Shown piece by piece: positions 15,593-62,213 of a stretch of DNA of 64,000 nucleotides. The notes beneath the pieces are model-generated. The model was not told the origin of the DNA. It made no database searches and saw only the letters and a list, made by a program, of their open reading frames with translations. Position 1 is the stretch's first letter. Each line of letters opens with the position of its first letter. Position numbers and translations under genes: made by a program. The DNA is from Acipenser ruthenus (lineage: Eukaryota), in assembly GCF_902713425.1 (NCBI RefSeq), contig NC_081212.1:9972261-10036260 (forward strand), written 5' to 3'.

Positions 15593-15599
15593 CAAAAGT

Positions 15600-15900: not shown

Positions 15901-16540
15901 GTTAAAAGGTCAAAAGAAGCATTTTTGTACAAGCTGCAGACAAGAAATAACATGACTATACCAGAGAAAAGGGCATTACAGTAATCAGTCCTTGAAGATA
16001 CAAAAGCATGCATCAGTTTCTCAGCATCTGGTCAGGAAAGAATACTTTTCAATTTGGCGATATTTCTTAGATGAAAGAAAGAGATTTTGGTAACATTTCT
16101 AATGTGCGGTTCAAAAAATGATCTGGGTCAAAGATCACTCCTAAGTAGGTCTGTCAAACGATTAAAAAAAATGTATCTTAGTTAACCTTGGTTTTAATCG
16201 CATATTTAATTGATACAATTACAGCATCCATCTCAAACATGGCAAACCAGGGTAAACTGGTCCTCCTATTTGTATGATACATAATAAAGATCAAATGGTT
16301 GATCTTTCTGTTAAAAGACAAACCTTAAATGAGACAGGGAGACTACGTAATGATACCGACTATAAAATCCACTTACTCTTCATTCAAGAACCACTTGGTG
16401 AACTCCAGTGAAGTATGTTGTGTGGTCTTGTACCACGACACAAATGATACATACCGCTATTCCGATACGATGTATCATGTACCTAAAGTATTCATCAATA
16501 CACAATGAATCATTACACCCCTATTCAAAACATAACTTAC

Positions 16541-16727
16541 CTTTAAACCCCTCTTCATCCACAATAATGGTATAGTCCTCCGGTGTTTCTGTCAGAGTGA
16601 AGAATTTACACCTACGAGAACGGGAGAGAGTTTTTACAAAAGCTATCGCTAAGTATTTATCAACTTTCAGCAAAAATGTGGCCCACTCAAGCATTTGTAA
16701 ATACTGATTTACACCAAGAAGATGCAT
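16541..16727 (-). CDS. First coding exon of a CASTOR/GATS-like (cytosolic arginine sensor for mTORC1) family gene; donor AAAG|GTAAGT; phase 1
   Basis: Translation is MHLLGVNQYLQMLEWATFLLKVDKYLAIAFVKTLSRSRRCKFFTLTETPEDYTIIVDEEGFK. This matches the remembered N-terminus of CASTOR1/2 (...RCKFFSLTETPEDYT[LM/II]VDEEGF...) at about 20 of 24 residues in the core. A canonical GTAAGT donor follows immediately on the minus strand. Confidence 0.6.
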
Positions 16728-16730
16728 GAC

Positions 16731-16942
16731 ATTATTATTATTATTATTAATTTCTTAGCAGACACCCTTATCCAGGGCGACTTACAATTGTTACAAGATA
16801 TCACATTATTTTTACATACAATTATCCATTTATACAGTTGGGTTTTTACTGGAACAATCTAGGTAAAGTACCTTGCTCAAAGGTACAGCAGCAGTGTCCA
16901 GTCAAGAGACCAGAGCCCTAACCACTACTCCACACTGCTGCC
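16731..16942 (-). mobile_element. tRNA-derived SINE (family B), minus orientation, with internal deletion of the B-box region
   Basis: Matches 29846-30091. tRNA-like head GGCAGCAGTGTGGAGTAGTGGTTAGGGCTCTGG. Tail TTGTAAGTCGCCCTGGATAAGGGTGTCTGCTAAGAAATTAAT(AAT)n. It sits 4-18 bp upstream of the CASTOR-like ATG. Confidence 0.8.
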
Positions 16943-17186
16943 TAATGTGCTGAAACAACCTAATGTGCTGCTAGGGTGCGATTTTAGAGTTAGTCAGGGA
17001 TAATGTAGCTGCCTCTCCCAGTGTATACCCTGATGGCATTTGAAAGGCAGGAGCACGAAAATAAGGAAGTTATAATCCCACCCACCCAGAACCACCAAAG
17101 CCGTCATTTTGACTGCCTTTTACAATACATGTTTTTATTTTGAATATAACCTACAATAGTCTATTTTATTTTTATATACACGCCTG

Positions 17187-17414
17187 TTGCTATCTCTACT
17201 GGACCTGGCAGCCATCAATTCCTTCGTTTTGTACAAGGAATGCCCCAGGGAAAATATCAGTAGGAGAGATTTCTTCTTGAAGCTAGCCACAGCGCTTCAG
17301 CAGAAACATTTTGATCAGAAAACTGCAAAGCAGCAGGCTGCAGCAGCTCAACCTGGACTCTGTGCTGCACCGAGTGACACAAACGCAAGAGAAAACATGT
17401 TACTTTCGTTTTAA
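17187..17414 (+). mobile_element. piggyBac-like transposase C-terminal fragment
   Basis: ORF reads LLDLAAINSFVLYKE...ISRRDFFLKLATAL, which resembles the conserved piggyBac C-terminal region. Identified from memory only. Confidence 0.35.
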
Positions 17415-18639
17415 GTTTTGTACGTACATATACCTGTTTACAAACTAGTTTCTTTTGAAATGTTTATTTTATTATAGTTTTTCATTTTTTGAAGCACTGC
17501 TTTATATGTGTTTATAAGTTAGAAAATAAACTTATGTTTAATTTAAATACGGCGTTTCGGCTGTGCAGATGTTTGATATGACGTGCTTGAATAAAACTTT
17601 GGAGTTGTATCCAATAGTTTGTCTTTCATTTTAATACTAATGTTGTTTAAAATGTACCATGATAATGACTACCGGCGGTGGGTTTAGGTATGAGTATAAC
17701 CGTGGCGGTTCTAGTGTTAAACTAATTTCATCTAAAGCCAGAATAGCAACAATTAAAAAAAACAAAAAAAAACACTGACTACTGTATCTTCATAGGACAC
17801 AAGCTATGACTAATGTTCATAACATATACTGTATGATTTTTCACACCCTGATTACAAAGCGAAATCTGTGCCATTAACAAATACAAAATGAACAGGACTG
17901 TATAATAGTTTGACTCAGAGTAGTGAACCGTTATAGTTGGTCGTGTACAAGTACGGTATCAGTAGTATAAATACATATTTACATTAATAAGGACACTGCA
18001 GATCGTTTCAGATTTTTGCTGGATTAATCATCTCCTGTACGCTTAAAAAGGGTGCGAGTTCTGTGGGGTATTTATACTTCCAAGAACTTTTTACACAGCC
18101 TGCTACATTGATTTTAGTAAAATAATTATAACTCCTCCCGTTTGAACAACCTTGTGTGAACAGTCAGTTAACATCAGAGCATAACTCCAAACCACGTGCA
18201 GTTTAGCAGCGCTCTGACAAAACGCATGATTGTCTTTGAAGCCTCTTTAAATCTAGAGTTCCCTGCTTTTTTGTTTAATGCATTTTCTGCTTTCTTTCGC
18301 CACCTGGTGGAAAGACTGTGCAGTGCAGAAGGGTTAACTATTGGCTCATTCTAGCTCAAGTCTATGGAATTGTTGAAATAAACCATGGGCACTGATTCCA
18401 GGGAGAAATCTAGGTCTTTCAAGTGGCCCCTACCCTAGGTTAAAATTCAGCTGTGTTTCAAAATGTACTATAATGCCCAAACAAACTGGACTTAAAGTAA
18501 GGAAGGGCTTGAAACCTGATACAGTCTCCTTATGAATCAAATATGCTTTAACAAATCATGTACTTCTCTATGCTAATAAACCGTGTTGTTGTATTGCTAT
18601 TGGAGGGCACCCCATTGTGATTGAACCATTCATTTATAT

Positions 18640-19021
18640 AGGAGGTTGGTCAGCGATATTCTGTTTAATTTAGTCAGCCGTAGTGGGAGCACAGTGACAA
18701 AGAGTACAAATCCCTACTCCCTGATAGTGGCCCGCTCTGCACTCTGAGGGTAAGGTTTAGGAAGAAAGGAGTGGTTGCGTTTTGTGTTCGGGCTTCACAA
18801 CTGAGGAACTCTGCCCATCATGTCGGAGGTTAGCCCACAGTGGCTACTTTTAAATCAAGTCTTAAGGCTTACGTCATGGTTATTTTAACTGTTTTATTAT
18901 TATTATTTTCATTTTATGAGTATTTTTGTCCTCTGTTAGTGTTTTTATAATATCTGCCTGTTTTATTTTAACTTGTGTGAAGTGCCTTGAACCTCGCGGC
19001 ATGAAAGGCACTCTATAAACA

Positions 19022-19069
<48 letters not shown>

Positions 19070-19075
19070 GAATAA
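18640..19075 (+). mobile_element. LINE/SINE 3' UTR-type repeat with GCGC-stem tail and (ATT)n
   Basis: Ends GTGAAGTGCCTTGAACCTCGCGGCATGAAAGGCACTCTATAAACACATT(ATT)n. Related tails occur at 7465-7520(-), 35560-35725, 41880-41960 and 63770-63850. Confidence 0.4.
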
Positions 19076-20685
19076 TAAGAATAATAAGAACAATAAGAAT
19101 AATAAACTATAAACCTGACTTGTGGCGTAAATCCTTGTAGCATAGTCAGCATTCCATTAATAAACCCCAACTGTTTTGACACACATAACTAGCGTGTTTA
19201 TCAAAACACAGGCCCCTTTTTAAAACAAGCAAACAAATGACATGCATTCTGTATTTAAATATTCTTCGCGTTTCCAAAAATGAACACTGGGGGCCGGTAT
19301 TTCAAAGCCCCGCCCCCTCATAAAACACATTAAGCAGCATTTTTATTGCATATCAGCAACACAGAGAACGAAGTTATTAATTATTCGCACTGTTGACACT
19401 GTATCCGGTAACTTGTGACAAATTCGACTTTAGTAACTCTATTTGCAAATCACTTGGTTCGCATTTATAATCGCTGCATTTTTCATGTTTTTCACTGTTC
19501 TGCTTACCTTGTTTTGGAGGGCAGGAAGGCGAGTTTGATTAATCCGTGTGTGAAAAACTGGATCCCTTCTTTTGCTATGCTAGCTACTTTTAAACTGTGC
19601 TCTAAAATATGCAGCTCCATCTTTTACGTCTTCTCATTTGCATATATCTAAAATCCTGGATATCAATTTTTTATGTATTTATATTATATTTGTATTTATA
19701 TCGCTAAAATAAAGCTTTGAAAAGCTAGTGACTGTAGTGAAAAAAAGTTCTCGGTTAAGGGAGAAACGGAAACAGCAGTAACACAAGTGGAGAAAAAGAA
19801 AAAGCGGAGTTAGGAAAATAGCAAAGAAAAAAGAGAAAGAGAGAGAGAAAGTCCCCGTGTTTTCTCTGCTGAGAGGAGTTGGAATAGTCCAGCAGCTGGG
19901 TACAGTGTACAAACAACATGTCATTCAAACCAAGGGAGGGCGGTCCAAGTATGGTCTCATACACGGATGCATGATGGGACTTGTAGTTTTTTTAAAAAAA
20001 ATCCCTATATATCCTACATGTAGTTTAACAACAATCTGTTACAATCGTGTTTTAGGTGATGGTGAACAATACAAAAGTACACTTACCTGTAATTTCTTGA
20101 TGTTTGTTACAGCCAAAAACAAATATTATATTCTCTTACATTGTACTTACAGTAAAGGGGTTGTAGCTAACAAAATAATTCCCTAAATCTTACCTGTTGT
20201 CACTTCCATTCGTTACAGGCCTCAATTGTACAGTTTTGAAAGACACCCATGTTATAGTAACCATGTGTTGTTATTTAAAATGTGATAGCTGGTGCTATAC
20301 TAGGTTCAATACATACTTCTGCAAGCTATTCTTTCAAATGGTGTTGTGCTTCCTTGGTAATTTCCCCAATCATTGAATTGCTTCTTTCCTGTCAGTAACC
20401 CACCAGACATAAAGCAATTAAGAACTTTCTTTAACCTAATGTATCAAATATCATGTTTTAAAATGAAAATACATGTTTGTTATACTGATAATCGGGATTG
20501 CTGCTTAAATGGGAATACAGCTCTGGGAGACGGTTCTCTCCAATGCTATTTATGTCGTTTAATTGAGACGTCACTTCGTTTAATTGGGATACAGTATTTT
20601 CAAATGATGAATGGAGATTGCTTTTCAGAGCAGTACAGTGAGTCTGTGATTACGCTGTGACTTGTGTAATTGTGTAACGCCTGTC

Positions 20686-20800
20686 ATCATGGCTGAGAAG
20701 AGAAAACGAGTTGATTTGTCTCTGGCTCAGAAGTTTGAACTGCTGAAAGAACTGGAGTCTCCTGTGGTTTCTCAGGCTGCTGTGGCAAAGAAATTATGAC
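20686..20800 (+). mobile_element. pogo/Tigger-like transposase N-terminal (CENP-B-type HTH) fragment
   Basis: MAEKRKRVDLSLAQKFELLKELESPVVSQAAVAKKL then a stop. This is a typical pogo/Tigger N-terminus. Confidence 0.4.
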
Positions 20801-21038
20801 ATTGAAATTGCTGGCGAACTTACCAGTGCTGAGCTTTTGGAGGCTGCAAATGACAGCAAGCATGTCAAAGTTAAAACGGCAGGGTGAGATTCTGATTCTG
20901 ATGATGACAGTGCACCGTCACCTCTCACCTTAGCCCAGAAGTTGCAAACGGTGGACCATCTTAGACAAATCATGCAGAACATTGAATGCATGCTGTGTTG
21001 CCCCTTCTGAGGATGGGGGAAGACAAAGTTCATAAGAA

Positions 21039-21215
21039 CATAAGAAAGGTTACAAACAAGAGGAGGCAATTTGGCCCATCTTGCTCGTTTGGTTGTTAGT
21101 ACCTTATTGATCCCAGAATCTCATCTCAAGTAGCTTCTTGAAGGATCCCAGGGGGTCAGCTTCAACAACATTACTGGGGAATTGGTTCCAGACTCCCACA
21201 ATTCTCCGAAGCAGC
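21039..21215 (-). mobile_element. CR1-like LINE 3' tail fragment
   Basis: GAGGAGGCAATTTGGCCCATCTTGCTCGTTTGGTTGTTAGTACCTTATTGATCCCAGAATCTCATC... matches the other CR1 tails. Confidence 0.7.
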
Positions 21216-21669
21216 TCAGTCACGGAAACAGCGCACAACTTACTCTTATTTCAAATGATGCATTTAACATTTCCAGGTACTGCAGTACTGTTTATTTTCA
21301 TGAGAAATAACAAAATACTTCTCCTCTCTTGTGCATGTTGTAAATGATGAATATAAGTGTGACTAGGGTCCTTTTAAATTCTCCTCTCAGTTAATTGGGA
21401 CAGCCGGTTATTCAGGATATTTTTCCTTCTGTCGAGGTGTCCCTATTAAGCAGTGCTGACTGTAATACGTTTATTTCATAACTGCACACTGGAAACATAG
21501 GTGCTAATGGAAGACCAACACACGTTACATTCAATTATTTGAATAAATTTACACTTTTAGATATTTAACAGAGTTCCAGAGGGTGCAAATATCTTTAGGG
21601 AATGTAAACAAACTAGATAACTAACAAGGTGAAGATTGTGCAGAAGAACAAAGCACAGGAGGGTGAACA

Positions 21670-22130
21670 ATGTAGGCACCTTCAGCAGCTTCTCGTCGTG
21701 TTCTATTCCCCTCTATATGGTGTTTGCAATCATTCTGAATGGTTCTGGGTTTTGTTGTCCAATGTAGACACCTTCAGCAGCTTCTCGTCGTGTTCTATTC
21801 CCCTCTATATGGTGTTTGCCATCATTCTGAATGGTTCTGGGTTTTGCTGTCCAATGTAGGCACCTTCAGCAGCTTCTCGTCGTGTTCTATTCCCCTCTAT
21901 ATGGTGTTTGCCATCATTCTGAATGGTTCTGGGTTTTGCTGTCCAATGTAGACACCTTCAGCAGCTTCTCGTCGTGTTCTATTCCCCTCTATATGGTGTT
22001 TGCAATCATTCTGAATGGTTCTGGGTTTTGCTGTCCAATGTAGGCAACTTCAGCAGCTTCTCGTCGTGTTCTATTCCCCTCTATATGGTGTTTGCAATCA
22101 TTCTCAATGGTTCTGGGTTTTGCTGTCCAA
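21670..22130. repeat. 92-bp minisatellite, about 5 copies
   Basis: The unit GTAGGCACCTTCAGCAGCTTCTCGTCGTGTTCTATTCCCCTCTATATGGTGTTTGC[C/A]ATCATTCTGAATGGTTCTGGGTTTTGCTGTCCAAT is repeated. The overlapping ORFs 21629-22239 are artefacts of the repeat. Confidence 0.95.
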
Positions 22131-22343
22131 TACTGAGCTCTTATCATTTCATCTTCAAATCCACTTGAACCTGCTTTGCGCTTCTCTGGAGAAGAGCTGG
22201 CACTTAACAGCCTTCCTTCCAAATCACCTGACACTATGAACTTTCAACTTCGGAGCCCCTCTTACTCTGCATGTATAGAGAACAATAAGAACATACTAGC
22301 ATTTCTTTATTTTTACTATTTTTTTCTTTTCTTTCTTTTTTTT

Positions 22344-22822
22344 AAATGTAGTCGTTGCCAATTTTTACCCCAGTTTTCTCCCCAATTTGGAATCGCCAAT
22401 TGGGTTATTATTAATCCCGGTTGACCACTGCAACCCCCGGCGACTTGGGAAATGAAGGCTGAAACACGTGTTCCCCGAAACTTCTTTCTGCCAAGCTGTC
22501 ATTTTTCGCACTGCAGATCCACAGCGAAGCCAGCAGACCCATAGTGCCGGAGGACAACACAGATCTGAATGGCTCCAGTGCAGACCTGCAGGCACCCTAT
22601 CAGCCACAGGGGTCGCTGCTGTGCAGTGAACTGTGGATTGCCCTGCCGATCTAAGGCCTCCCTACCCAGGCGGTGCTCGGCCAATTGTGCGCCGCCCACT
22701 GGGAACCCCCAGTCATGGTCGGCAATGGCATAGCCTGGATTCGAATTTGTGATCTCCAGGCTATAAGGCGCATCCTGCACTCCACACGGAGCTTCTTTAC
22801 TGGATGCACCACTCGGGAGCCT
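22344..22822 (-). mobile_element. tRNA-derived SINE (family C, about 480 bp), minus orientation
   Basis: Reverse complement matches 51284-51762 and 58957-59455 (head GGGGGCTCCCGAGTGGCGCA...GTTCGAGTCCAGGC; tail ...ATTGGCAACGACTAAATT). Confidence 0.8.
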
Positions 22823-22999: not shown

Positions 23000-25330
23000 A
23001 TTGTCAGAATGTGGTATGTGTACCACAACTTGTAAGCAGAAAGTGGTACGATGTCAGATTGATTGAATGGGTGCTTCCCTGGTTTCAGTCTGGGAAGGCA
23101 GAGGAGTCCGCGGATCCTGGTCGGACCACTGGACGTCCCTGCATATTAACATGCTGGAGCTGCAGGCGGTCTCCCTTGCTCTTTGCCATTTCCTCCCAGT
23201 GCTAAGAGGTACACATGTGTTGGTCCGGACGGACAATATAACAGTGGTGGTGTATGTCAACCACCAGGATGGCCTACGGTCCCCGGGGTTGCATCGCATG
23301 GCCTTCAGGCTTTTGATGTGGGCTCAGAGGAACTTGCTGTCCCTGCGAGCGACGCACATTCCCAGAGCAGTGAACTGGGCAGCGGACCTCCTCTTGAGGG
23401 AGGATCCCCTTTCATCAGAGTGGTGACTCCACCCTCAGGTAGTGGAGCGCATTTGGGAACGATTCGGGAGGTCGCAGGTCGATCTCTTTGCCTTGGTGGA
23501 GACGACACACTGCCCCCTGTGGTACTCCCTCCACCGCTTAGGTGGTCCACTCACGAATGGCCCAAAACGTTTTTGTATGCTTTCCCACCTATACCGCTGC
23601 TCCCGGCCTTTCTCGAAAAGGTCTGGCGTCAATTCTCCTAGTGGCCCCCAGTTGGCCAAGGATAATCTGGTTCTCGACCCTCTGCACATGGATCTCCTGA
23701 GTCAGACGAGAGGCACTGTTTGGCACCTGGAACCGGGCAGGTTCCGGCTATGGGTCTGGCCCATGAAAGGGACCGCTGGTTAGCCCTAGGGCTATTAGAT
23801 GCGGTTGTGGGTACTTTGCAGAATGCTAGGGCACACTCCACTACGTTTTTTTACACCTACAAGTGGAAGTATTTTCAAGCTTGGTGTCTGGCTAGAAGCC
23901 ATGACCCAATCTCTTGCCCTATGCCGGTTATCTTACAGTTTCTGCATGAACTGCTTGATGCTGGTAGGTCACTGTGGCAATGTGCCCCGCCCCTGTGTGC
24001 ATATTATGTGTTGTATGTTGCGTGCGTGTGTTAATGTTGGTGTATAGATTGGTACACGGGATATAAACGGGTCTGTGTTTCACGTGTGATTTAAAAAGTG
24101 TAGATTTGTATTTAGGCACGAGGAGGGCACAAATCACTTCACGTGCTGGTTAAATGTAATATGTAAGCACGGGGTTGCACAGAATTAATTCACGTGCTGG
24201 GATTCAAGTGAATAATTAATTAGTAATTGAATCCCAGCACAACAGTATATATAGATGCACATTTCATTCAGTCAGGGTTGGGTGTTCAGTGAGTGGAGAA
24301 CGGGTGTGGAGCGGAGGTAAATGTTAATGAAAAGAATAAGAAGTAGTAGTTGTTTTCACTCACCGTGTTTGTTTAAGTGTCTAGTACGTTTTGTTTGTCT
24401 ATTTATTTTGGCGCAAGTGCCGTGTCCTGTGTTTTTGTGTTCCAACCTTTTATTTTCTGTTCTGTTTATTAAATGCTGAGCGAAAGCATTCGCTCAGCTT
24501 CACCAAACCACACATCTTTGTCTGTTTATTTCCTGGCTCTGGTCTGACGCCACCCACTCCGGCCGTCTTTGTGACAGTCACCTTCCACTTTGAAGGTGTA
24601 TTTAGCAGCTATTTCTGCATGCCATGCACCCATAGATTCGGTGTCTCCAGGTGCGCATTTCTTGGCTACCTGATTTCTTAAAGACACTCTGCGATTATGC
24701 CCTCCCAGGAGACTGTTCTCCCCGAATTGAGCCTTGATATTGTACTGGAGGTTTTCACGAAGGCCCCGTTTGAGCCCATATACTCCATAGAGTTGAAGCA
24801 TCTGTCTATGAAGACAGCCTTCCTCGTGGCTATCACCTCTGCTAAGCGGGTCAGTGAGCTGCAGGCGCTGTCTGTGCACAGCTCCTGCATGCACATTTGG
24901 GAGGATGGCAGCAGGGTGTCTCTGCGCACCAACCCTGCTTTTCTCCCCAAGGTGATCACAGCCTTCCACATGAATCAGTCTGTGGAACTGGAGTCCTTCC
25001 ATCCACCCCTGTTAGCTTCTACGGAGGATGAGAGATTGAGATTGGTCCCTCATATGCTGCTGTTCCTTCTCCCTTGCAATGGCTCTGGTATACATTATCC
25101 CATACATAATGTCTTTGGTGGTCGTCTTTGAATTGAAAGGGAATGTTAGGTTACTTACCGTAACCCTGGTTTTAATCCCTCTGTGGACGGGACCGAGAGC
25201 GTCATCGCAGGAAGGGGCCTATCGGCAACTCTGGTATAGAGAGCTCAGCAATTACCTACCCAATGGGCAGGCATATCCTATACATAATGTCGTTGGTGGT
25301 CGTCTCTTTTAGGGAACTAGGGTTACGGTA
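23000..25330 (+). mobile_element. DIRS-like tyrosine-recombinase retroelement fragment (RNase H, DIRS-specific domain, YR N-terminus; frameshifted) with palindromic terminal structure
   Basis: RNase H reads LELQAVSLALCHFLPVLRGTHVLVRTDNITVVVYVNHQDG at 23067-23426. The VDLFA...YAFPPIPLL domain is split across frames at 23442-23640. The recombinase N-terminus spans 23720-24034 and 24697-25131 (...AFLVAITSAKRVSELQAL...). Positions 25134-25320 hold a perfect 19-bp inverted repeat, GGTTACTTACCGTAACCCT / AGGGTTACGGTAAGTAACC, flanked by direct repeats CATACATAATGTC[T/G]TTGGTGGTCGTCT. Confidence 0.6.
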
Positions 25331-26399
25331 AGTAACCTAACGTTTTATTAATGTATTTCTACAGTGCTTACAAATCTTACAACACAGTTTAAAGCAGTAA
25401 AGACAAATAAGTATTTACTTGTTTACCATGCTGACATAATTTACTTCTTATAGAACTTAATGCAAAAGATGAAAAACAAACTTGGTCTGCAATAGCTGCA
25501 GATGGGTTTGTGGGTGTTTACCAGTTGGATTTGTGTGGGGGGGTGTTTATGCTGCAACCTAACTCGCTTCCAATTTCTTATTCTTATTTTTACTATGATT
25601 GGCTGCAAAGACAACAGGGCTAACCAGTGATTGGATAATGTTTTGTTGGGTGGGTTTTTATTGTTAGTAACTGTAATATGATTTGCACAATAGAAAATAA
25701 AAAAGGACTTGTCGTTAATATCTCAGTCACAGAGCCCAAACGTTCGACTCCGAGTCACACAAGGTTGGGTCCGAGTCAAGTCCGAGTCCCGGACTCGAGT
25801 CCTACAAGTCTGCGTCATAGAAATTGTTTTACCCAAAAAGCAAGACAAATAGTTTACTGGGTGAATTATCACTGCTAACACAGTGCAGGTGTATTTAATT
25901 ACCAAGTCAGTTGTAAATATGTATTTATAGAAATTACATTACAAGACAGGTACTTCACAGGATATTAAAAACCTGTCCCACTAAACACAATACATAAAAT
26001 AGGCTAAAATCAGGGACGTTTCTCTACAATGAGGAATGAAAACTAAAATAAACAAACAAAGCCCTACTCTACAGAATGCCAGGCTGTCGGGGATTACACC
26101 GTATACCAAGCCTGTGTGTCACTTTTTACCAAATACTATATCCAAATCGGTTTACTCACACCCTCTCATAATTCTGAGAATACTTTGACAACTACTCGTA
26201 GATCTCACAAAGGCAGGTTTACAATCGTACACTTGCAAAATTATAACAGCCGTCAGATTCTTTTTTGAAGAAAGTTACACAACATTAGTGCCGGTGTTCT
26301 GAAAATCGGAGCCTCCCCCTCCAAATGGGCCTCCCGGAGCACAGGTTTTCAGACTAGTCTGATAAGTAGTGCCACCCCTCTAAATTAGCTACCTAGATC

Positions 26400-27120
26400 G
26401 AACAATGCAAGGAAGTTAATTTGGAGAAGCAGAAATGACAGCACCAAATGGGCTACCCTGTGTTTTGACTGAAATGTACACTGTTGCAGCAGCAAAGGTA
26501 ATTCAAAATGATCTGATGACATTTAATATAGAAAAGTGTAAGGTACTGCACGCAGGCAATAGAAATGTGCATTATAAATACCATATGGGAGACACTAAAA
26601 TTCAAGAAGGAATCTATGAAAAATCTAGGAATCTAGGAGTTTATGTTGACTCAGAAATGTCTTCATCTAGACAATATGGGGAAGCTATAAAAAAAGGCTA
26701 ACAAAATGCTCTGACATATTGGGAAAACTGTTGAATTTAAATCAAGGGAAGTAATGTTAAAACTTTACAATGCATTAGTAAGACCTCATCTAGAATATTG
26801 TGTTCAGTTGTGGTCACCTCGTTACAAAAAGGATATTGCTGCCCGAGAAAGAGTGCAAAGAAGAATGACCAGAATTATCCCTGGTTTAAAATGCATGTCA
26901 TATGCAGACAGGTTAAAACAATTGAATATTTTCAGTCTTGGACAAAGAAGACTACGCGGCGATCTGATTCAAGCATTCAGAATTCTAAAAGGTATTGACA
27001 ATGTCGACCCAGGGGATTTTTTCAACCTGAAAAAAGAAACAAGAACTCCCCATAATCTCCACCTCCCAACCCCACGTGTAATAATGTTAAGAATTCTTAC
27101 CTTACATATAATTAACCAAA
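26400..27120 (+). mobile_element. CR1-like LINE RT C-terminal fragment (plus orientation)
   Basis: ORFs 26435-26701 and 26754-27164 read ...KCKVLHAGNRN...[45 protein letters not shown]...[16 protein letters not shown]. This is the CR1 RT thumb/C-terminal region, found also in chicken CR1. Confidence 0.8.
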
Positions 27121-27139
27121 CAAATTCTACAATAACAAA

Positions 27140-30100
27140 ATATCTTTGCTTGTTTGGTTGTTAGGAGCTTATTGATCCCAGAATCTCATCAAGCAGCTTC
27201 TTGAAGGTTCCCAGGGTGTCAGCTTCAACAACATTACTGGGGAGTTGGTTCCAGACTCCCACAATTCTCTGTGTAAAAAAGTGCCTCCTATTTTCTGTTC
27301 TGAATACCCCTTTGTCTAATCTCCATTTGTGACCCCTGTTCCTTGTTTCTTTTTTCAGGTTGAAAAAGTCCCCTGGGTCAACATTGTCTATACTTTTTAG
27401 AATTTTGAATGTTTGAATCAGATCGCCGCGTAGTCTTCTTTGTTCAATACTGAATAGATTAAATTCTTTTAGCCTGTTATGACATGCCTTTTAAACCAGG
27501 AATAATTCTGGTCACTCTTCTTTGCAGTCTTTCTAAACAGCAATATACTTTTTGTAGTGAGGTGACCAGAACTGAACACAATATTCTAGATGAGGTCTTA
27601 CTAATGCATTGTAAAGTTTTAACATTACTTCCCTTGATTTAAATTCACTTTTCACTATATATCCCAGCATTTTGTTGGTCTTTTTTATAGCTTACCCACA
27701 TTGTCTAGATGAAGACATTTCTGAGTCAACATAAACTCCTAGGTCTTTTTAATAGATTCCTTCTTCAATTTCAGTATCTCCCATATTGTATTTATAATGC
27801 ACATTTTTATTGCCTGCATGCAGTACCTTAAACTTTTCTCTATTAAATGTAATTTGCCGTGTGTCTTCCCAGTTCTGAATGCTGTCTAGATCATTTTGGA
27901 TGAACTTTGCTGCTTTTTTGTGTCATCTGCAAATTTTACAAGTTTGCTTACTATACCAGAATCCAAGTCATAAATGTAGATTAGGAATAGCAGAGGGCCT
28001 AATACTGATCCCTGTGGTACACCACTGGTTACCTCGCTCCATTTTGAGGTTTCTCCGCTAATCAGTACCTTCTGTTTTCTGCATGTTAACCACTCCATAA
28101 TCCATGTGCATACATTTCCTTGAATCCCTATTGCGTTCAGTTTGATAATTAATCTTTTATGCAGGACTTTGTCAAAAGTTTTCTGGAAATCTAAATAAAC
28201 CATGTCATATGCTTTGCAATTATCCATTGTTGATGTTGCATCCTCAAAAAAATCAAGCAGTTTAGTTAGACACGATCTCCCTTTCCTAAAACCATGCTGA
28301 CTGTCTCCCAGGATACTGTTACCATATAGGTAATTTTCCATTTTGGATCTTATTATAGTTTCCATAGGTTTACATATAATAGATGTCAGGCTTATTGGTC
28401 TGTAGTTACCTGGTTCGGTTTTGTCTCCCTTTTTGTGGATCGGTATTACGTTTGCAATTCTCCAGTCTGTCGGTACAACCCCTGTCTCAAGAGACTGATG
28501 CATGATCTTGGTTAGTGGTTTGGAAATAACTTCTTTCATTTCTTTGAGCAATATTGGGAGGATCTCATCTGACCCAGGGGATTTGTTTATTTTAAGAGCT
28601 CCTAGTCCCTTTAACATTTCTGCCTTGGTTATGCTAAAGTTATTTAAAACAGGATAGGAACAGTTAGACATGTGGGGCATGTTGTCCGTATCCTCCTTTG
28701 TAAAAACTTGTGAAAAGTACTCATTTAATATATTTGCTATTTTTTTCTCTTGGTCTATGATTTTGCAATGTATATCTCTTAGCCATTTAACCTCCACTTT
28801 GAATGTTCTCTTGCTATTATAATATTGGAAAAACTTTGTGGAATTGGTTTTATGCCCCCTAGCAATGTTCATTTCTATCGCTCTCTTGGCCTTTATAACT
28901 TCCTTTTTGATTTGCATTTGCAGTTCCAAGTACTCTTTCTGTGTACTTTTTTCTTGGTCCCTTTTAAACGCACTGTAAAGCGCCTTTTTTCGCTGAATAT
29001 TGTTTTAATTGATCTATTAAACCATTTTGGCCATTTTGTTTTAGATTTAGATTGGTCTACTTTTGGGATGTAATTGTTAAAAAACAGCCATCCTTTTTCT
29101 GTGGATGTTTTCTCTATTTACTCCAACTTCTATTAGTCTGTTTCATACCTTTATAGTTTGCCTTGTTATTTTTGGGGTTTTAAAAATCACTTAAAATGAG
29201 ACCATGTTGTGGTCTGAGTTTGCCAATGGTTCTCTGACCTCTGTTTTAGTTATTCTGTCTTTGTTATTAGAAAAGACTAAATCAAGGCATGCCTCCCCTC
29301 TAGTCGGTACCTTGACAAATTGCGTTAGGAAGCAGTCATTTGTCATTTCCACCATTTCAATTTCATCTGTCATGCTCCCCACCGGGTTTTCCTATTTTAT
29401 ATGGGGGAAGTTGAAATCCCCCATTAGTATGGCTTCTCCTTTGCTACACGTATTTCTAATGTCATTGTATAACAGATTATTTTGCTTGGTGTCTGAATTT
29501 GGTGGTCTGTATGTAGCATGCTCCTATTATTATGCCCTTTGAATTTTTGTCCATTATTCTGACCCATATTGATTCAGCGTTGTTTTCTTCGTCCAGATTT
29601 AACACTTGGGCTTCAAGACTATATCTTATGTATAGCACTACCCCTCCGCCTCTTCTGTCCTGCCTGTCTTTCCTATATAGTGTATACCCACTAATATTAT
29701 ATTCGTCTTCATTACTCTCAGATAACCAAGTTTCTGTAACACCTATCACATCGTAGTTACTTGTTAGTACAGTAGCTTCAAGTTCTAACATTTTGTTTCT
29801 AATACTTCTAGCATTTAGATAAATACATGTAATGGCTGTCTTACTATTATTATTATTATTATTATTATTTATTTCTTAGCAGACGCCCTTATCCAGGGCG
29901 ACTTACAATTGTTACAAGATATCACATTATTTTTACATACAATTACCCATTTATACAGTTGGGTTTTTACTGGAGCAATCTAGGTAAAGTACCTTGCTCA
30001 AGGGTACAGCAGCAGTGTCCCCACTGGGGATTGAACCCACAACCCTCCGGTCAAGAGTCCAGAGCCCTAACCACTACTCCACACTGCTGCCCCTGAGTTG

Positions 30101-30170
30101 TTGCCCTTGTTTTGATGTGGTCTCCCTTCTGTTTTTTTGTTAATTTCACCCCCCTTCATTTATAGTTTAA
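27140..30170 (-). mobile_element. CR1-like LINE, near-complete ORF2 (endonuclease plus reverse transcriptase) and 3' tail; contains a nested SINE
   Basis: 3' tail at 27140-27300. RT ORF 27886-28929(-) carries FADDTK/YLDFQKTFDKV motifs. Endonuclease fragments lie at 29191-29382 and 29477-29791(-). The 5' region is collinear with 9900-10110 except for a SINE inserted at 29846-30091. Confidence 0.85.
29846..30091 (-). mobile_element. tRNA-derived SINE (family B) nested in the CR1 5' region
   Basis: Full tRNA-like head with A box TGGAGTAGTGGTTAGGGC and B box GGTTCAATCCCCAGTGGGG. Tail GTAAGTCGCCCTGGATAAGGGCGTCTGCTAAGAAATAAAT(AAT)n. The empty-site homolog is at 9985-10000. Confidence 0.85.
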
Positions 30171-30419
30171 ATGTCACGTTGCTACTAGTAACACCTTCTC
30201 CAAACCTTTGGGAAACTTCCAGCAACATTACCTATTGAATAATGAATTATTCAATTTTTTCGATGTATATCATGAAGCGTAATTACGTTTCATTATTTAA
30301 TTTATTTAATTTATCACAATGTATCACACATGGGGATAGCATTCATTTGCAGTCCATTATAACATCACTTTAATTTTTAAACTTCTTATAGTTAGCTTCT
30401 GGATTATCAGACTATACAG

Positions 30420-31250
30420 AGTCAGTTTGATGTAATTGTTGAACATTAACTTTTGAGATGTTTCAGAGGTGGTAGAAGGAGGATTTGACTACAGAGGAGA
30501 TGTGGGCATCAAAGGAGAAATTACCAAGGCTTCGTACTGTGGGGGAAGGCAGCAGCAGACAGTTTCCGAGGTTCAAGGCAGCAATATTGAGATTCTTGCG
30601 TTGAGTTTTCGATCCTACTAGAAGTTCAGATTTGTGTTCAGCTGAAGAAAATTGCCAGACATCCAGGTCTCAATGTCTTGGATGCTAGCTGAGAGCCGGA
30701 CCATGGCAGAGGGACATCCAGGGTCTAGTTTCAGGTAGAGCTGGGTGTCATCAGCATAGGAGTGAAACATGAGGCTGTGTTGGCGGATGAGGTGACCCAA
30801 GGGAAGCATGTAGACGTTGAAGAAAAGAGGCCCAAGAACAGACCCTTAAGGGACACCACAGGTGACCGGGTTTTCATAGAAGACAGACTGCATGCATCCA
30901 GATAGATAAGAGGACAGCCAGGAGAGACAGGTTCCAGAGATCCCAGCATACTTCTGAAGGCGGTCAAGAAGAATGTCATGATCTATGGTGTCAAAAGCAG
31001 CTGTTAGGTCAAGGAGGACAAGCACAGAGGGAGCTGCAGCATCAGCATTAAGCAAGAGATCATTTACAATCCAGAGCAGAGCAGTTTCAGAACTGTGATG
31101 CGGCCAGAAGCCAGACTGCAGAGATTCAAGCAGATTGTTATCTGTGAGATGTTTCGTCAGCTGGCTGGCAACAGCCCTTTCAAGAGTTTTGGCGAGAAAA
31201 GGAAGATATATCGATTAATTAATTTATTTATTTATGTGAGTGTGGTGGGT
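30420..31250 (-). mobile_element. L2-clade LINE reverse-transcriptase fragment (frameshifted)
   Basis: Minus-strand ORFs give LDLTAAFDTIDHDILLDRL...GISGTCLSWLSSYL and ...YADDTQLY.... These are RT motifs of L2-type LINEs. Confidence 0.7.
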
Positions 31251-32169
31251 TATGGGAGGAAGTGATGTGATACAGAAGTGATGGAGACAGGAAGCACGTA
31301 GTTGGGGTTGTTTTTTTTTATTTATAACTCCCACAAGAAACTGCCTCTGTTACCAGCTATGGTAAGCAGAGGCTTGAAATGAAAAACAAATAGTCCAAAC
31401 AAAAGAGAAACACTGCCACAGGGTTTTCCAATGATCCACAACAAGCAGGTGGCTCGGGCTCCCTCTTCAACACAACAGGACAAGTAGATCTCAGGGAAAA
31501 TCCAGACTCGAAGGCAGCCGGTCTGGGAATCCTCAGTCTGAATATACGTAAAACAAACAAAAGAACAAAACTCACAGAGCTCACGCAGCACAACTGCCTC
31601 AGTCCAGGATAGAGAGACCAAATGGCAGAACCCCACAGCCTAAATAGTGCCGAGCCCTGCCCCTACAATCAGTGCACTGCCCCACCTCAGCCAATCGTCG
31701 AGCGCAGCACAGCTGATTGCAATAATGGGGCTCAACCATGAGGTCCTGCCCCAAGTTAAGATGGCCGCCCCCACTGTGGCTTCTGCCCCAACCATGACTC
31801 AGCCATTCTCCTGTGTCTCGGTCCTTCCTGCACAGCGCTGCCAGTAGTCGGGAGGGCAAATTACAAGAGGGACTCCTTTCACTCCTGTCACAGTGAGTAA
31901 CACTTTTAAATGTAATTCCGTGTCTGCAATTCATCACGAATTACATATGAACAAACTCTTATTCTAAAGTGTTACCAATTATTTAATACAGCGTTGGCGA
32001 GGCTGTTCACCCTCCTTTGCATAAAGATAACATGTCGCTCCCCTCCACTAACATGGGGGCAGCAGTATTGGCAGGTCAGTCGTGATCTCTGTATCGTCTC
32101 TGGTTCACAGCCGCAGCCAGCACCCTACATACTTTTCAAAGCTGCGCTGGGCAGGATCTGCACAGATTT

Positions 32170-42534: not shown

Positions 42535-42765
42535 TTTGGTATGGCAATAGAAGATGTATGGGAATGTTTGAGTTTGATGCTTTGAGGTGGGTAGTGTTTG
42601 AAAGCATGGCTTTCTACACACAGTGTGTCATACCCCTCCTCAGGTGAGCAGGGCGGATGTATGGGAATGTTTATGAGTTTGACGCTTTGAGGTGGGTAGT
42701 GTTTGAAAGCATGGCTTTCTACACACAGTGTGTCATACCCCTCCTCAGGTGAGCAGGGCCGAAGG
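42535..42765. repeat. Tandem duplication (2 x about 112 bp) that duplicates the exon 8 splice acceptor
   Basis: GATGTATGGGAATGTTT..GAGTTTGA.GCTTTGAGGTGGGTAGTGTTTGAAAGCATGGCTTTCTACACACAGTGTGTCATACCCCTCCTCAGGTGAGCAGGGC occurs twice. The second copy supplies the functional acceptor. Confidence 0.9.
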
Positions 42766-42922: not shown

Positions 42923-43032
42923 GTACATTCTTTTCCTGATTTGCCAGACAAAAAGCTGTTATAAAGACTGAATCCAATTACCAGACCTCTTTTTAAGAGT
43001 AGATACAATGAAACAATCTTGAAAATGTAAAA

Positions 43033-43270
43033 TTGATCAGACTCCTTCTCTTGTTGTGTGTGCTGAGCAGTATTGATCAGACTCCTTCTCTTCTTGTGTG
43101 TGCTGAGCAGTATTGATCAGACTCCTTCTCTTGTTGTGTGTGCTGAGCAGTATTGATCAGACTCCTTCTCTTCTTGTGTGTGCTGAGCAGTATTGATCAG
43201 ACTCCTTCTCTTCTTGTGTGTGCTGAGCAGTATTGATCAGACTCCTTCTCTTCTTGTATGTGCTGAGCAG
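43033..43270. repeat. 40-bp minisatellite, about 6 copies, just downstream of exon 8
   Basis: TATTGATCAGACTCCTTCTCTT[G/C]TTGTGTGTGCTGAGCAG units. Confidence 0.95.
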
Positions 43271-43331
43271 TTATTTTACTGTGCATTGCATTCTGTGGTC
43301 TTGTCTATCTTTGCCCTGTGCTTTCCTGTAG

Positions 43332-47097: not shown

Positions 47098-47188
47098 GTC
47101 TGGAATTATTATCATTTTTTTAATTGGTATATTTTCTTGGTCATATTTCTGTTAGTTTTTTGTTATTTTTTTGAATGATTTCTTACAG

Positions 47189-47372
47189 CACAATTCTCAA
47201 GTATTCAAAGCCTAGTGAAAGTGATGGCACGCGGCTCCTGGTGGTTTGTGACATCGCTCTCGGTGAGTGCAAGCACCTGCACAAGAAAGATTTCACCTTG
47301 GCATCTGCGCCAGCCGGGTACAGCAGTGTGCTCGGAGTGCGGCAGACTGCAGACGTTGCTTCGGAATTCCAG
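47189..47372 (+). CDS. PARP4: PARP4 coding exon 12 (catalytic domain)
   Basis: STILKYSKPSESDGTRLLVVCDIALGECKHLHKKDFTLASAPAGYSSVLGV... aligns with human STSIKYSHPGETDGTRLLLICDVALGKCMDLHEKDFSLTEAPPGYDSVHGV.... Donor CAG|GTACTG. Confidence 0.85.
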
Positions 47373-47814
47373 GTACTGTAATCAGCGTACCTTAGAAGAA
47401 TTCGTTTTTTATGGTCATTTATTTAAAGCTGTTCATGAAGGAAATGTGTTGAATGCTCAATGCAATGTTACGCTTCCTGTAAACTCAGAGATGCCGCTTG
47501 AAGGAGCCATGTCCCCATTTAAAATAAGCCAGTCATAGGAAAAGCAGTGATTGGTACTCAAATGCGAGCCAATGTGTCTGGCTTCTGGGAGGGAGTTCTT
47601 TAAAAGAAAATACATGGCAAACATTTGGAATGTTTTGTTTTTAAAGTTTTTTTTTTTTTTTTTTTTCTGGAGAAATGTATATTTAAAAAAAGTGCTTGGG
47701 AAGAGTCCTTGTCTAAAAAAATTAAGCATTTAGAAACTCTCAAACTCCCAGAAGCAACTCCTCTGTATCGGATGCATTGCTTCAGTGGGATGTGCAGCAT
47801 AGGAAAGAGTGCAA

Positions 47815-47900
47815 AAGACTGCAGTCTGCCGCACTCTGAGCACACTGCTGTACCCGGCTGGCACGTGGCTCCTGGTGGTTTGTGACATCGCTCTCGGTGT
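47815..47900. other. Intronic exon-derived rearranged duplicate: inverted copy of exon 12 bases 47309-47352 plus direct copy of exon 12 bases 47228-47265
   Basis: 47817-47862 is the reverse complement of 47309-47352 with 1 mismatch. 47862-47899 repeats 47228-47265 with 1 mismatch. Confidence 0.85.
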
Positions 47901-47938
47901 AAAAGTGTACTGGTAAATTAAAGCCTATACATAACATT

Positions 47939-48183
47939 TAGGAGGCTGTGTGGTCCAGTGGTTAAAGAAAAGGGCTTGTAACCAGGAGGTCCCCGGTTCA
48001 AATCCCACCTCAGCCACTGACTCCTTGTGTGACCCTGAGCAAGTCACTTCACCTCCTTGTGCTCCGTCTTTCGGGTGAGACGTAATTGTAAGTGACTCTG
48101 CAGTTGATGCATAGTTCACACACCCTAGTCTCTGTAAGTCGCCTTGAATAAAGGCGTCTGCTAAATAAACAAATAATAATAAT
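47939..48183 (+). mobile_element. tRNA-derived SINE (family A), complete copy
   Basis: tRNA-like head GGCTGTGTGGTCCAGTGGTTAAAG...GGTTCAAATCCCACC. Body ...GAGCAAGTCACTTCACC.... Tail GTAAGTCGCCTTGAATAAAGGCGTCTGCTAAATAAAC(AAT)n. Other copies are at 1-118 and 60560-60783(-). Confidence 0.85.
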
Positions 48184-48535
48184 ACCACTGTCAGATCACA
48201 ACACAGATTAATAACAGTTTAGAATAGTGTAAAATAAATAAGTACATATAAATACAGGTTCCAGTGTAGACATACATATATCCACTTTTACATAATAGTA
48301 CTACTAATTAAAAATGAAAATAGTAAGATAAAATGCAATGATGCAATAATAGCACATTAAAAGCAGCAATTAAAACCCATTCAAACCCATTAAGATAAAA
48401 AGGCCAGTTAAACATTGATAACAGCATTCAGAGGCAGTTCTCTCTCGTGTTCTGCTGGTTAGAAGTGTTTGTTGCAGCCGATCTCTGAAAATGTTTCTTT
48501 TGTATTGAGTTGAGTTGTTCGATCCTTTTCTTTAG

Positions 48536-49320: not shown

Positions 49321-50215
49321 ACATAAGAAAGTTTCCAAACGAGAGGCCATTCAGCCCATCTTGCTCGTTTGGTTGTTAATCGCTTATTGATCCCAGAATC
49401 TCATCAAGCAGCTTCTTGAAGGATCAGGTTGAAAAAGTCCCCTGGGTTGACATTGTCAAAACCTTTTAGGATTTTGAATGTTTGAATCAGATCACCGCGT
49501 AGTCTTCTTTGCTCAAGACTGAACAGATTCAATTCTTTTAGCCTGTCTGCATATGACATGCCTTTTAAACCAGGGATAATTCTGGTCACTCTTCTTTGCA
49601 CTCTTTCTAGAGCAGCAATATCCTTTTTGTAGTGAGATGACTAGAACGGAACACAATATTCTACATGTGGTCTTACTAATGCATTGTAAAGTTTTAACAT
49701 TACTTCCCTTGATTTAAATTCAACACTTTTCACTATATTTACTAGCATTTTGTTGGCCTTTTTTATAGCTCTAGATGAAGACATTTCTGAGTCAACATAA
49801 ACTCCTAGATCTTTTTCATAGATTCCTTCTTCAATTTCAGTTTCTCCCATATGGTATTTATAATGCACATTTTATTGCCTGCATGCAGTACCTTACACTT
49901 TTCTCTATTAAATGTAATTTGCCATGTGTCTGCCCAGTTCTGAATGCTGTCTAGATCATTTTGAATGACCTTTGCTGCTGCAATGGTGTTTGCCACTCCT
50001 CCTATTTTTGTGTCGTTTGCAAACTTAACAAGTTTGCTTACTATACCAAAATCTAAATCATTAATGTAGATTAAGAAGAGCAGAGGACCTAATACTGATC
50101 CCTATTGTACTCCACTGGTTACCTCGCTCCATTTTGATGTTTCTCCTCGAATCAGTACTTTCTGTTTTCTACATATTAACCACTCCTTAATCCATGTGCA
50201 TGCATTTCCTTGAAT
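49321..50215 (-). mobile_element. CR1-like LINE 3' portion (RT C-terminus plus tail), minus orientation
   Basis: Tail at 49321-49400. Minus ORFs read ...[28 protein letters not shown] and ...[18 protein letters not shown]. Confidence 0.8.
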
Positions 50216-56517: not shown

Positions 56518-56629
<112 letters not shown>

Positions 56630-60559: not shown

Positions 60560-60783
60560 AGTAGTTTAACCTTTATCCAAGGCGACTTACAGAGACTAGG
60601 TTGTGTGAACTATGCATCAGCTGCAGAGTCACTTACAATTACGTCTCACCCGAAAGACGGAGCACAAGGAGGTTCAGTGACTTGCTCAGGGTCACACAAT
60701 GAGTCAGTGACTGAGGTGGGATTTGAACCGGGGACCTCCTGGTTACAAGCCCTTTTCTTTAACCACTGGACTACACAGCCTCC
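60560..60783 (-). mobile_element. tRNA-derived SINE (family A), minus orientation
   Basis: Reverse complement matches 47939-48183. Confidence 0.85.
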
Positions 60784-62213
60784 TTTTGAATATTTAAAAG
60801 AACCAACTATACAGATTTAAATTAACAATGCAGATGCCATTTTAGAAACTATTGACTATCAATTTATAACAAACAGCTTTATAAATCAAATACATTCTCA
60901 ACTATTATTGTTAAATAAGAGAAAAACAGAGATCCAATACACATGACTGAAAGTGGAACAACTGCTTAATGGCAAATATGAAACAGGAAAATGTATCAAA
61001 CTCAAAAGATTTATTTACACAACATTTGTAAATGCTCAGAATGAAAAGAACGAGAAATTTAACAAAAACATGTATATGCTTTGAAACACAAAACCAGTAA
61101 AACGGTAATAACAAATTACTAGCAGATGAGTCATGGGGGGGGGGGGGGGTTAGGGGATAAAAAAAAATCGAAATGCTGTATATATCAGTCTTTGTTTAAA
61201 CATCCCAAAATATCCAGTCCCCCAAAAATATATTTTTTATCCAAAAAAGTAACTGGGGGAAAAAAAACCAAACAATTCAAAACAAATAAGCTCGGTCTCC
61301 CTGGTAATCCAAATGGAGAAGCCTGATTCTTCAGAGATAATATTTTTGCTGATCATGGCTTAGGAATGAAGATCTGCAGCAGGGCATGGCGTACACAGTA
61401 ATAACGCAGCCGCATTGGAGTTTTGTGGTTGTTATTTATAACATTTTTTGTATCTTTCCATAAACTATACTGACTGAACTACAATGGATTACAAACTTTA
61501 CAAGCAACTCCATTTCAAAAAGTCTGCGCACTACCCAGGGCGTCTTTTTTAAAGGGATACACTCCAAATAGAAAAACCAAACAATGAGCTCATTTTTTTT
61601 CTTTCTGCGTACCTTTTTATTAAAAAAATATCATTGCCAGGCCAGGCTTACCGCTGCTAAAAATAAGAGACAGCAGGTGGAACGCTTATATCCCACGTTG
61701 TAAGGTATTTGCTGCAGATTGGCATAGTTACATACATTGCCTGAGACTCACTGGGAATTGTTGACAATGGCCGGTTAATGTCCAAAGTACTCTACATTTC
61801 CATTAAGAAAATAACATCGGCCAAAGTGACCGGCACTGCCGTCAGAGCCCAAGAGCAACGGTCATTGACAGCATTGGCCGATTTTCAGTCTTTGGCCGTA
61901 ACATAGACATTTCTGTTTCGGTCATCACATCCTGTGGAGTTTTTGTTTTAAAGGGTCTTGAACATGTCCTCTGTCTACAGTAGGTAGTCCAGCTAACACA
62001 ACAGAGTGTAAGCATTAACCTGCTCCCTTCCACCCTAGTGGATGCAAGAAATGCAACAGTAACATTCCAGTATGTTTTTGTGGTCCATACAGGTCTTAAT
62101 TCCACTTCTTTATAAAGCAATGTGCTGGTGAATGTACTGCATCAGTATGTGTTTACTGACAAATAATGCATTTTCAATATGGTCAAGTGTGTTTTCTTTT
62201 CTTATGTTTTCAG

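Follow-up and report, generated by a model that had tools for sequence, protein, structure and literature searches.

Paired inverted and direct copies of a PARP4 catalytic exon in the following intron, probably templated filler at the site of a SINE insertion

The 64,000-nucleotide stretch of Acipenser ruthenus DNA analysed here (contig NC_081212.1, positions 9,972,261 to 10,036,260; hereafter the window) carries PARP4 on its + strand, from about 33465 to past the window end. In the intron that follows one of its catalytic-domain exons lie two short and nearly identical copies of parts of that exon, one inverted and one direct, which we call together the block. A short interspersed element (SINE) stands just downstream. 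A preliminary description, made from the sequence alone, had reported such paired exon duplicates, and they are indeed present, with coordinates that are slightly corrected below.

The PARP4 exon and its two intronic patches

The exons were mapped with a human PARP4 probe and then checked independently by a PDB search. The concatenated exon translations of the window matched the 1724-residue human PARP4 chain at E 1e-211, compared with only about 1e-14 for PARP1 and PARP2, and the matches covered the BRCT, catalytic and VIT regions. These values bear out the earlier assignment of the gene to PARP4. Among database proteins, PARP4 of Polyodon spathula (93% over the N-terminal part) and of Acipenser ruthenus come closest. 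For the translation of the focal exon (...DGTRLLVVCDIALGECK...GYSSVLGVRQT...), the only PDB matches are to human PARP4, residues 452-544, and the next exon, which begins DDEYVVY..., contains the catalytic Glu. The focal exon is the 11th mappable coding exon, and the label of exon 12 given to it previously is plausible. Within this exon we also observed an internal consensus-like donor, TCG/GTGAGT (47263-47268), which is identical in the sterlet and whose use would drop 110 nt and shift the reading frame. The authentic donor CAG/GTACTG lacks the +4A and +5G consensus bases.

A BLAST search within the window aligned the inverted patch to its exon source over 44 nt (1 mismatch, E 2e-17) and the direct patch to its own over 41 nt (1 mismatch, E 1e-15), while a repeat search lengthened the inverted repeat to 49 nt at 94% identity. 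The positions are listed in Table 1. The inverted copy had been described as starting at 47817 and starts 2 nt further right; the direct copy, described as 47862-47899 repeating 47228-47265, extends 3 nt further left. The internal donor-like TCG/GTGAGT (47260-47268) reads TCG/GTGTAA in the copy, as had been noted. The patches overlap by 4 nt (TGGC, 47859-47862), and because the inverted source starts with GCCA and the direct source with TGGC, this overlap is exactly what a 4-nt microhomology junction would leave. Read on the minus strand, the block consists of the antisense of 47225-47265 followed by the sense of 47309-47352, with the 43 nt in between (47266-47308) skipped. The templates of the patches are 467-594 nt distant from the block.

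Self-BLAST of the whole 64 kb revealed that the exon and its patches form the sole dispersed near-identical pair that is neither microsatellite nor SINE; only one other duplication in the window involves an exon. Microsatellites, SINE copies and three tandem arrays account for the remaining self-matches. When 47740-47818 and 47900-47939 were aligned locally to the two neighbouring exons, no further exon snippet emerged above chance. A 15-nt inverted match to the previous exon (47772-47786, p 0.05) was rejected as explained by that exon's own palindrome.

Table 1. Features of the focal exon and the following intron, in window coordinates; a slash marks a splice boundary.
Feature	Position	Strand	Remarks
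PARP4 catalytic-domain exon	47189..47372	+	encodes (S)TILKYSKPSESDGTRLLVVCDIALGECKHLHKKDFTLASAPAGYSSVLGVRQTADVASEFQ; acceptor ...TTCTTACAG/C, donor CAG/GTACTG
Source of direct patch	47225..47265	+	terminates 3 nt into internal TCG/GTGAGT
Source of inverted patch, exon arm of predicted duplex	47309..47352	+	3' end is the palindrome CTGCAG (47347-47352)
Predicted recoding sites	47320; 47322, 47325; 47344; 47346		Y>C (best context, UAC); S>G; Q>R; T>A
Host intron of block, spacer and SINE	47373..48535	+	1163 nt; next exon starts 48536
Pre-existing intron flank	47806..47821	+	AGAGTGCAAAAGACTG; identical in the sterlet locus L002 up to ...AAAAGACTG
Inverted exon patch	47819..47862	-	reverse complement of 47309-47352
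Direct exon patch	47859..47899	+	copy of 47225-47265
Spacer	47900..47940	+	41 nt; first 14 nt TAAAAGTGTACTGG
Full-length tRNA-derived SINE	47941..48184	+	UnaL2-type 3' tail, (AAT)n end; aligned with copies 60570-60784(-) and 1-110

The empty site, the adjacent SINE and the junctions

The comparator for the focal intron is a sterlet locus (L002; Acipenser ruthenus GCA_004119895.1, SCEB01004359.1), a gapped short-read draft scaffold that contains two versions of the region. Version A spans L002 8148-13342 and version B runs from L002 14827 onward, with an N gap between them. Version A aligns to the window from 46857 to exactly 47821 (...GGAAAGAGTGCAAAAGACTG). Past this position the window reads CAGTCTGCC... 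and the sterlet reads GCACCAGTTT..., with no assembly gap at the divergence. Version A then has 1014 nt that are found nowhere in the window or in the paddlefish locus described below, and its alignment to the window resumes at 48183 (TACCACTGTC...), where the window SINE has its 3' end. Therefore, 361 nt of the window (47822-48182) replace 1014 nt of version A. This replacement consists of the exon patches, the spacer and the full-length SINE, and the sequence missing from the empty site starts inside the inverted patch. The only match to the block in L002 is the sterlet exon itself.

The sequence of version B opens within the tail of this SINE, and its SINE 3' junction is that of the window. 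In the comparison of orthologous loci that the preliminary description had proposed, the block is absent from version A, and version B has an N gap at the corresponding position. Over 327 nt on the right of the SINE site, we counted 6 differences between the window and version B, 14 between versions A and B, and 20 between the window and version A; past window 48510 the two sterlet versions are identical. Left of the block, the window and version A differ by 13 substitutions in about 930 nt (1.4%). On these sequence comparisons, L002 appears to be an assembly bubble in which two sterlet haplotypes or homeologues follow each other in series, with version A empty and version B SINE-bearing and the relative of the window. 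Versions A and B are 4.3% different in the 320 nt between the two SINE insertion sites. Within the same intron, the window also differs from version A by a 24-nt indel at 47437-47460 and by the length of a T20 run (47647-47652). The annotated sterlet gene model P0017 fails to translate back from the locus and is probably distorted.

The focal SINE is full-length, with the same 5' start as the copy at 60784, and its tail scores 46 bits (E 3e-7) against Rfam UnaL2, short of the gathering score of 55. It adjoins the block, as had been described, yet starts at 47941 rather than 47939; the spacer that separates the two led us to reject the block as the direct 5' junction of the element. At the 3' junction, where homology to the empty site resumes at 48183, the shared TA constitutes a microhomology. 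No target-site duplication (TSD) accompanies the focal SINE. In contrast, version A contains a lineage-specific member of this SINE family that is flanked by a clean 9-nt TSD (TTTCTTTTG), which indicates that the focal insertion was abnormal. The SINE family was thus still active once the lineages of A and B had diverged. The version A copy (L002 10425-10650) corresponds to about window 48503, lies in the opposite orientation with the acceptor of the next PARP4 exon only about 30 nt downstream, and is 5'-truncated by about 5 nt. UnaL2-type stem-loop tails are common to several SINE and long interspersed element (LINE) copies in the window, where Rfam returned five UnaL2 matches (55-108, 2265-2316, 16747-16798(-), 29868-29919(-) and 48121-48174) at 44-48 bits, all below 55. 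Apart from these SINE tails, tRNA and Rfam scans of the window found nothing.

On the left, homology to the sterlet empty site stops with the flank at 47806-47821, whose end is likely the primer end. This left flank resembles exon 47334-47349 at 12 of 16 positions, the last 6 being exact (AGAGTGC...AGACTG), and shares GAGTGCAA with exon 47265-47272 (8-nt match, P 0.016), similarities with P of about 0.002-0.016. Since the same left flank occurs in the empty site, these similarities existed before the event, and they may have guided the choice of template. The left junction shows a microhomology of CTG (47819-47821). Between the flank and the SINE head lie 122 non-element nucleotides (47819-47940), 81 of which are exon-templated. 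Two other readings of the flank were rejected. Its first part (47806-47818) could be taken as a third, fold-back piece (palindrome extension 10/13, attained by 2/841 complex palindromes), but the flank is already present in the empty site. Likewise, a 9-nt TSD made of GTGCAAAAG and GTGTAAAAG (P 0.03) is contradicted by the same flank in the sterlet empty site, through ...GAGTGCAAAAGACTG.

The first 14 nt of the spacer resemble the ancestral junction CAAAAG-ACTGG with p about 0.08-0.2, which is suggestive only; as a third flank-derived patch they were set aside for the same reason (p about 0.08). The other 27 nt (TAAATTAAAGCCTATACATAACATTTA) had no match in the window, L002 or the paddlefish locus. 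We also rejected the spacer as an orthologue of the empty-site bases by the rejoin point, since it aligns there at about 60% identity with gaps (p 0.11) whereas about 94-98% would be expected, and as an orthologue of any other part of the 1014 nt (p 0.2).

Both differences between copy and exon are C-to-T changes at CpG on the + strand of the copy. In the inverted patch, 47836 is T where C is expected, opposite exon G47334; in the direct patch, 47866 is T versus C at exon 47232. The exon states at the two sites encode the conserved Arg of DGTRLL and a conserved Gly in human PARP4, and the exon is identical to that of version A at 184 of 184 positions, showing that the copy is the derived side. 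Two of the seven CpGs in the patches have changed, compared with none of the 67 non-CpG bases, a pattern that on the sequence speaks for biological decay and argues against an assembly artefact. Furthermore, 2 changes in 81 nt correspond to the neutral expectation from a flank divergence of 1.4-2.9%. The recent origin proposed earlier agrees with the near-identity of the copies but holds only in relative terms, as the SINE junction is common to a sterlet sequence that is about 2-3% diverged. The SINE insertion predates the split of the window from that sterlet sequence, and so would the block if the two arose in one event.

The paddlefish locus (L003; Polyodon spathula GCA_017654505.1, CM030290.1) contains a truncated PARP4 paralogue with another gene after it, and ends before the focal intron. 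Positions 10001-22816 align only to BRCT/WGR-like exons (window about 32.7-42.6 kb), which suggests a paralogue devoid of the catalytic, VIT and vWA parts, and the partial locus is followed by a FYVE_2-domain gene on the opposite strand (25049-31391). A search with a 94-aa protein, an exact look-up of open reading frames and metagenome scans gave no further relevant locus. The window and L003 also share an interspersed repeat family of about 0.5-1.1 kb at 86-91% identity (window 8426-8968, 26516-28287 and 49424-50214; L003 2080-4846), with several window copies in both orientations. Elsewhere in PARP4, a tandem duplication with a 103-105-nt unit at 42553-42759 (2.0 copies, 97% identity) doubles the 3' splice site and the first 11 nt of an exon (cctcctcag/GTGAGCAGGGC). 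The extra acceptor lies 103 nt ahead of the real one (42749/42750), and its use would shift the reading frame. Tandem arrays occur in a PARP4 intron (40-nt unit x6, 98% matches, 43032-43271) and at two further intronic or intergenic positions, with a period of about 92 nt at 21668-22131 and a short period at 56520-56628.

Proposed origin of the block

We consider it probable that the block is filler made during integration of the SINE, or during repair of the break that this integration left, and that about 1 kb of target was lost on the same occasion. With considerably greater confidence we regard the block as a templated repair patch in one form or another, not kept by selection. Template switching during repair or retrotransposition, as suggested in the preliminary description, fits both the 4-nt junction microhomology and the comparison with the sterlet empty site, and it is this comparison that ties the block to the adjacent SINE.

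From the junctions we infer a single event, in an order of steps and with enzymes that are likewise proposed. An ancestral intron like sterlet version A would have broken and lost about 1 kb, and the gap would have been filled by 361 nt comprising the 81 nt of exon-templated patches, the 41-nt spacer and a full-length SINE of the L2/UnaL2 type. Most likely the SINE itself would have caused this by integrating through target-primed reverse transcription, which truncated the target site over a long distance and left 5' "extra nucleotides". The first strand would have been nicked and the SINE reverse transcribed at 48183/48184, after which the upstream strand would have broken some 1 kb further left. 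The free + strand end on the upstream side (...AAAAGACTG-3'; ...GACTG-3') could then have annealed via CTG/CAG to the exon sense strand about 470 nt upstream, and its extension from 47349 back to 47309 would have produced the inverted patch. The opposite end, on the - strand and bearing the SINE cDNA, would have gone past the spacer and then used that same sense strand as its template, from 47265 to 47225, producing the direct patch. Finally, the new ends would have annealed at TGGC/GCCA and been sealed. The sense-strand template may have been the resected upstream DNA strand or nascent PARP4 pre-mRNA; as both patches lie inside one exon, the sequence fits either. A narrower version, in which the LINE reverse transcriptase and the opposite end copied nascent pre-mRNA by twin priming and thereby created an ADAR target in the catalytic exon, seems to us improbable. 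If true, it would be a natural example of the birth of an exon-intron editing duplex.

The locus shows what is expected of target-primed insertion, namely an element with a LINE-type tail at the 3' edge, no TSD, loss of target and flank-derived 5' nucleotides. For L2-clade elements, short TSDs are the norm, 3' junctions show microhomology in about 80% of cases, 5' junctions carry extra nucleotides in about 40-50%, largely flank-derived or from template jumps, and target-site truncations range from 343 bp to 50 kb (PMC2666801, PMC4245944). In end joining, snap-back synthesis in cis gives reverse-complement inserts and synthesis from the other end gives direct inserts, usually with one flank as the template (PMC5068794).

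Several points weigh against a common origin of filler and SINE. There is a single comparator and no outgroup for the ancestral state, so that the 1014 nt of version A could be a change in its own lineage. Version B has its N gap exactly at the block region, in a scaffold that is gapped, so that block and SINE are seen together in the window alone. The 122-nt filler far exceeds the "several" extra nucleotides usual at L2 5' junctions, and long truncations are rare in wild-type cells (PMC2666801). Moreover, 27-41 nt of spacer are unexplained, and patches of 41 and 44 nt drawn from about 470-590 nt away exceed typical polymerase-theta inserts (PMC5068794).

Unlikely, though stronger than the other rivals, is an independent local template switch by slippage, by fork stalling and template switching (FoSTeS) or microhomology-mediated break-induced replication (MMBIR), or by polymerase-theta end joining. 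Here the intron would have been deleted and the gap patched by two exon-templated pieces, the SINE landing nearby by chance before or after. Patches of opposite orientation from one nearby flank, 3-4-nt junction microhomologies and homeology between flank and exon that existed beforehand (GAGTGCAA, P 0.016, and AGACTG) are all features described for these mechanisms (PMC5453318, PMC5068794, PMC2943611). However, the deletion edge would then have to fall by chance within 41 non-homologous nt of the SINE 5' end, and the absence of a TSD from this SINE, although its sister copy has one, suggests that the insertion itself was abnormal. The sizes and distances of the patches, too large for typical polymerase-theta inserts, count against this explanation as well (PMC5068794).

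Predicted exon-intron duplex, remaining alternatives and known systems

The single mismatch of the inverted arm places a U opposite exon G47334, a G.U wobble, such that the predicted RNA stem comprises 44 uninterrupted base pairs. The perfect stem described before is therefore uninterrupted but measures 44 bp, not 45. Folding of 47180-47910, as the preliminary description had advised, recovered it in both the minimum free energy and the centroid structures (z = -8.4) as the dominant long-range exon-intron stem. Its predicted duplex energy is about -109 kcal/mol, and its modelled mean pair probability of 0.999 holds in a 1.5-kb context.

Sequestration of the donor by this stem had been put forward. 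The modelled probability that the authentic donor CAG/GTACTG is unpaired is 0.20 with the block, 0.20 when the block is deleted and 0.19 when it is scrambled; the internal GTGAGT gives 0.21, 0.27 and 0.22 under the same three conditions. Only the 44-nt exon arm is altered by the block, from about 0.30 to 0.00. Donor accessibility being unchanged in silico, the sequestration idea is unsupported. The splicing-regulatory role proposed along with it fares no better, given that the direct patch, which does not pair, is equally preserved and that an identical exon occurs beside a block-less intron.

Eight exonic adenosines lie inside the duplex, at 47312, 47320, 47322, 47325, 47336, 47344, 47346 and 47351, five of which would recode if edited (Table 1). 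Further candidate editing positions in the intronic arm are 47823, 47833, 47839, 47842, 47844 and 47852. The duplex is long enough for an ADAR substrate, and the model makes it a plausible candidate for editing. Most coding ADAR sites are specified by exon-intron duplexes (PMC1920255). As with the intronic editing-complementary sequences (ECS) of GluR-B Q/R and R/G and of Gabra-3 (PMC1920255, PMC3479170), the intron would pair in the pre-mRNA with a coding exon that precedes it. Established ECS duplexes are imperfect, show conservation and direct editing to selected sites, whereas the PARP4 duplex as predicted is perfect and lineage-specific. Our literature search found no paper that links PARP4 with RNA editing or inverted repeats.

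We give little credence to the block as an ECS or splicing element kept by selection, whether for A-to-I recoding of the catalytic exon or for modulation of the exon or its donor. The thermodynamic dominance of the duplex, the retention of pairing as G.U by the sole change in the inverted arm, the architecture shared with known ECS sites (PMC1920255) and the five recoding adenosines would be in line with such a role. In contrast, the direct patch cannot pair with the exon and yet is equally preserved, with one CpG change in each patch, which indicates that the good state of the patches is explained by their age and a slow clock, not by selection for pairing. Neutral drift predicts the observed number of changes, sterlet version A has the identical exon without a complementary block, modelled donor accessibility is unchanged, and no paper was found that links PARP4 with such editing. 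In our expectation the duplex is neutral or slightly deleterious.

An assembly or sequencing artefact, for example a chimeric or fold-back read, is less credible still. No observation favors it positively, although the related assembly is gapped where the block would be. Fold-back artefacts work at the scale of reads, not on pieces of 41-44 nt. The two CpG-to-TpG transitions point to decay rather than to an exact artefactual copy, the junction microhomology is ordered, the left edge of the block falls where the window truly differs in structure from the sterlet empty site, and version B independently contains the adjacent SINE junction. Least credible of all is the capture of exon fragments by a DNA transposon or Helitron (a Pack-type element) that landed in the intron: such elements are known to capture gene fragments, but the block is not bordered by terminal inverted repeats, a hairpin terminus or a TSD, neither block nor spacer has a second copy in the window, L002 or L003, and the short distance to the source, about 470-590 nt within one gene, speaks for local templating.

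As templated filler at the SINE junction, the locus would provide a clean and datable germ-line example from a vertebrate of filler at a junction between retroelement and break, in which the filler is coding sequence placed to pair perfectly with its own exon in the pre-mRNA. One repair event could thus make a long exon-intron duplex, the raw material for an ADAR site or a splicing-modulating stem, without any stepwise evolution. The sterlet appears to hold empty and filled versions beside identical exons, a natural comparison for the effect of the duplex. If the duplex is inert, the shared complex indel could still serve as a marker for relationships among sturgeon haplotypes or homeologues. 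For annotation, the block is a caution that exon-like fragments in introns are not necessarily exons.

Zebrafish ZfL2-2 and ZfL2-1 insertions share with this locus a UnaL2-type tail, 3' microhomology (TA) and the absence of a TSD (PMC2666801, PMC4245944). Upstream target loss, non-element nucleotides at the 5' junction templated from the flank, and short microhomology are further common features. Unlike in those insertions, the filler here is 122 nt long instead of a few nucleotides, its templates lie about 470-590 nt upstream in a coding exon, and one piece is inverted. The coupling to the SINE is drawn here from one empty-site comparison.

In the twin priming of L1, which Ostertag and Kazazian reportedly described in 2001, 5'-inverted LINE-1 insertions are formed. 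As proposed here, the two 3' ends of a staggered break copy the same sense-strand template, giving an inverted and a direct segment with an internal gap (here 47266-47308) and a microhomology join. The template in our case would be a host exon, as DNA or pre-mRNA, rather than a retroelement RNA, and the SINE is full-length and uninverted.

Synthesis-dependent microhomology-mediated end joining by polymerase theta likewise combines snap-back and trans patches from one flank (PMC5068794, PMC2943611, PMC4912351), with reiterated priming on 1-4-nt homology and an accompanying deletion. Inserts of this kind typically measure less than 25 bp, with priming no further than about 10 bp from the break (PMC5068794), compared with 41 and 44 nt and hundreds of nucleotides here, and in this case a SINE forms part of the fill.

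Template-switch mutations that make hairpins offer a fourth parallel, since a single event suffices to produce a long and perfect inverted repeat able to fold into an RNA stem, with no need for stepwise compensatory evolution (PMC5453318, PMC8794818). The four-point model describes a single short-range switch and return and excludes long-range or serial cases (PMC5453318), whereas our block has at least 3 junctions, also contains a direct piece and spans a range of about 0.5 kb. The origin of the block is thereby largely explained, probably as exon-templated filler at a junction between break and SINE, a known kind of event that is here unusually large and tidy.

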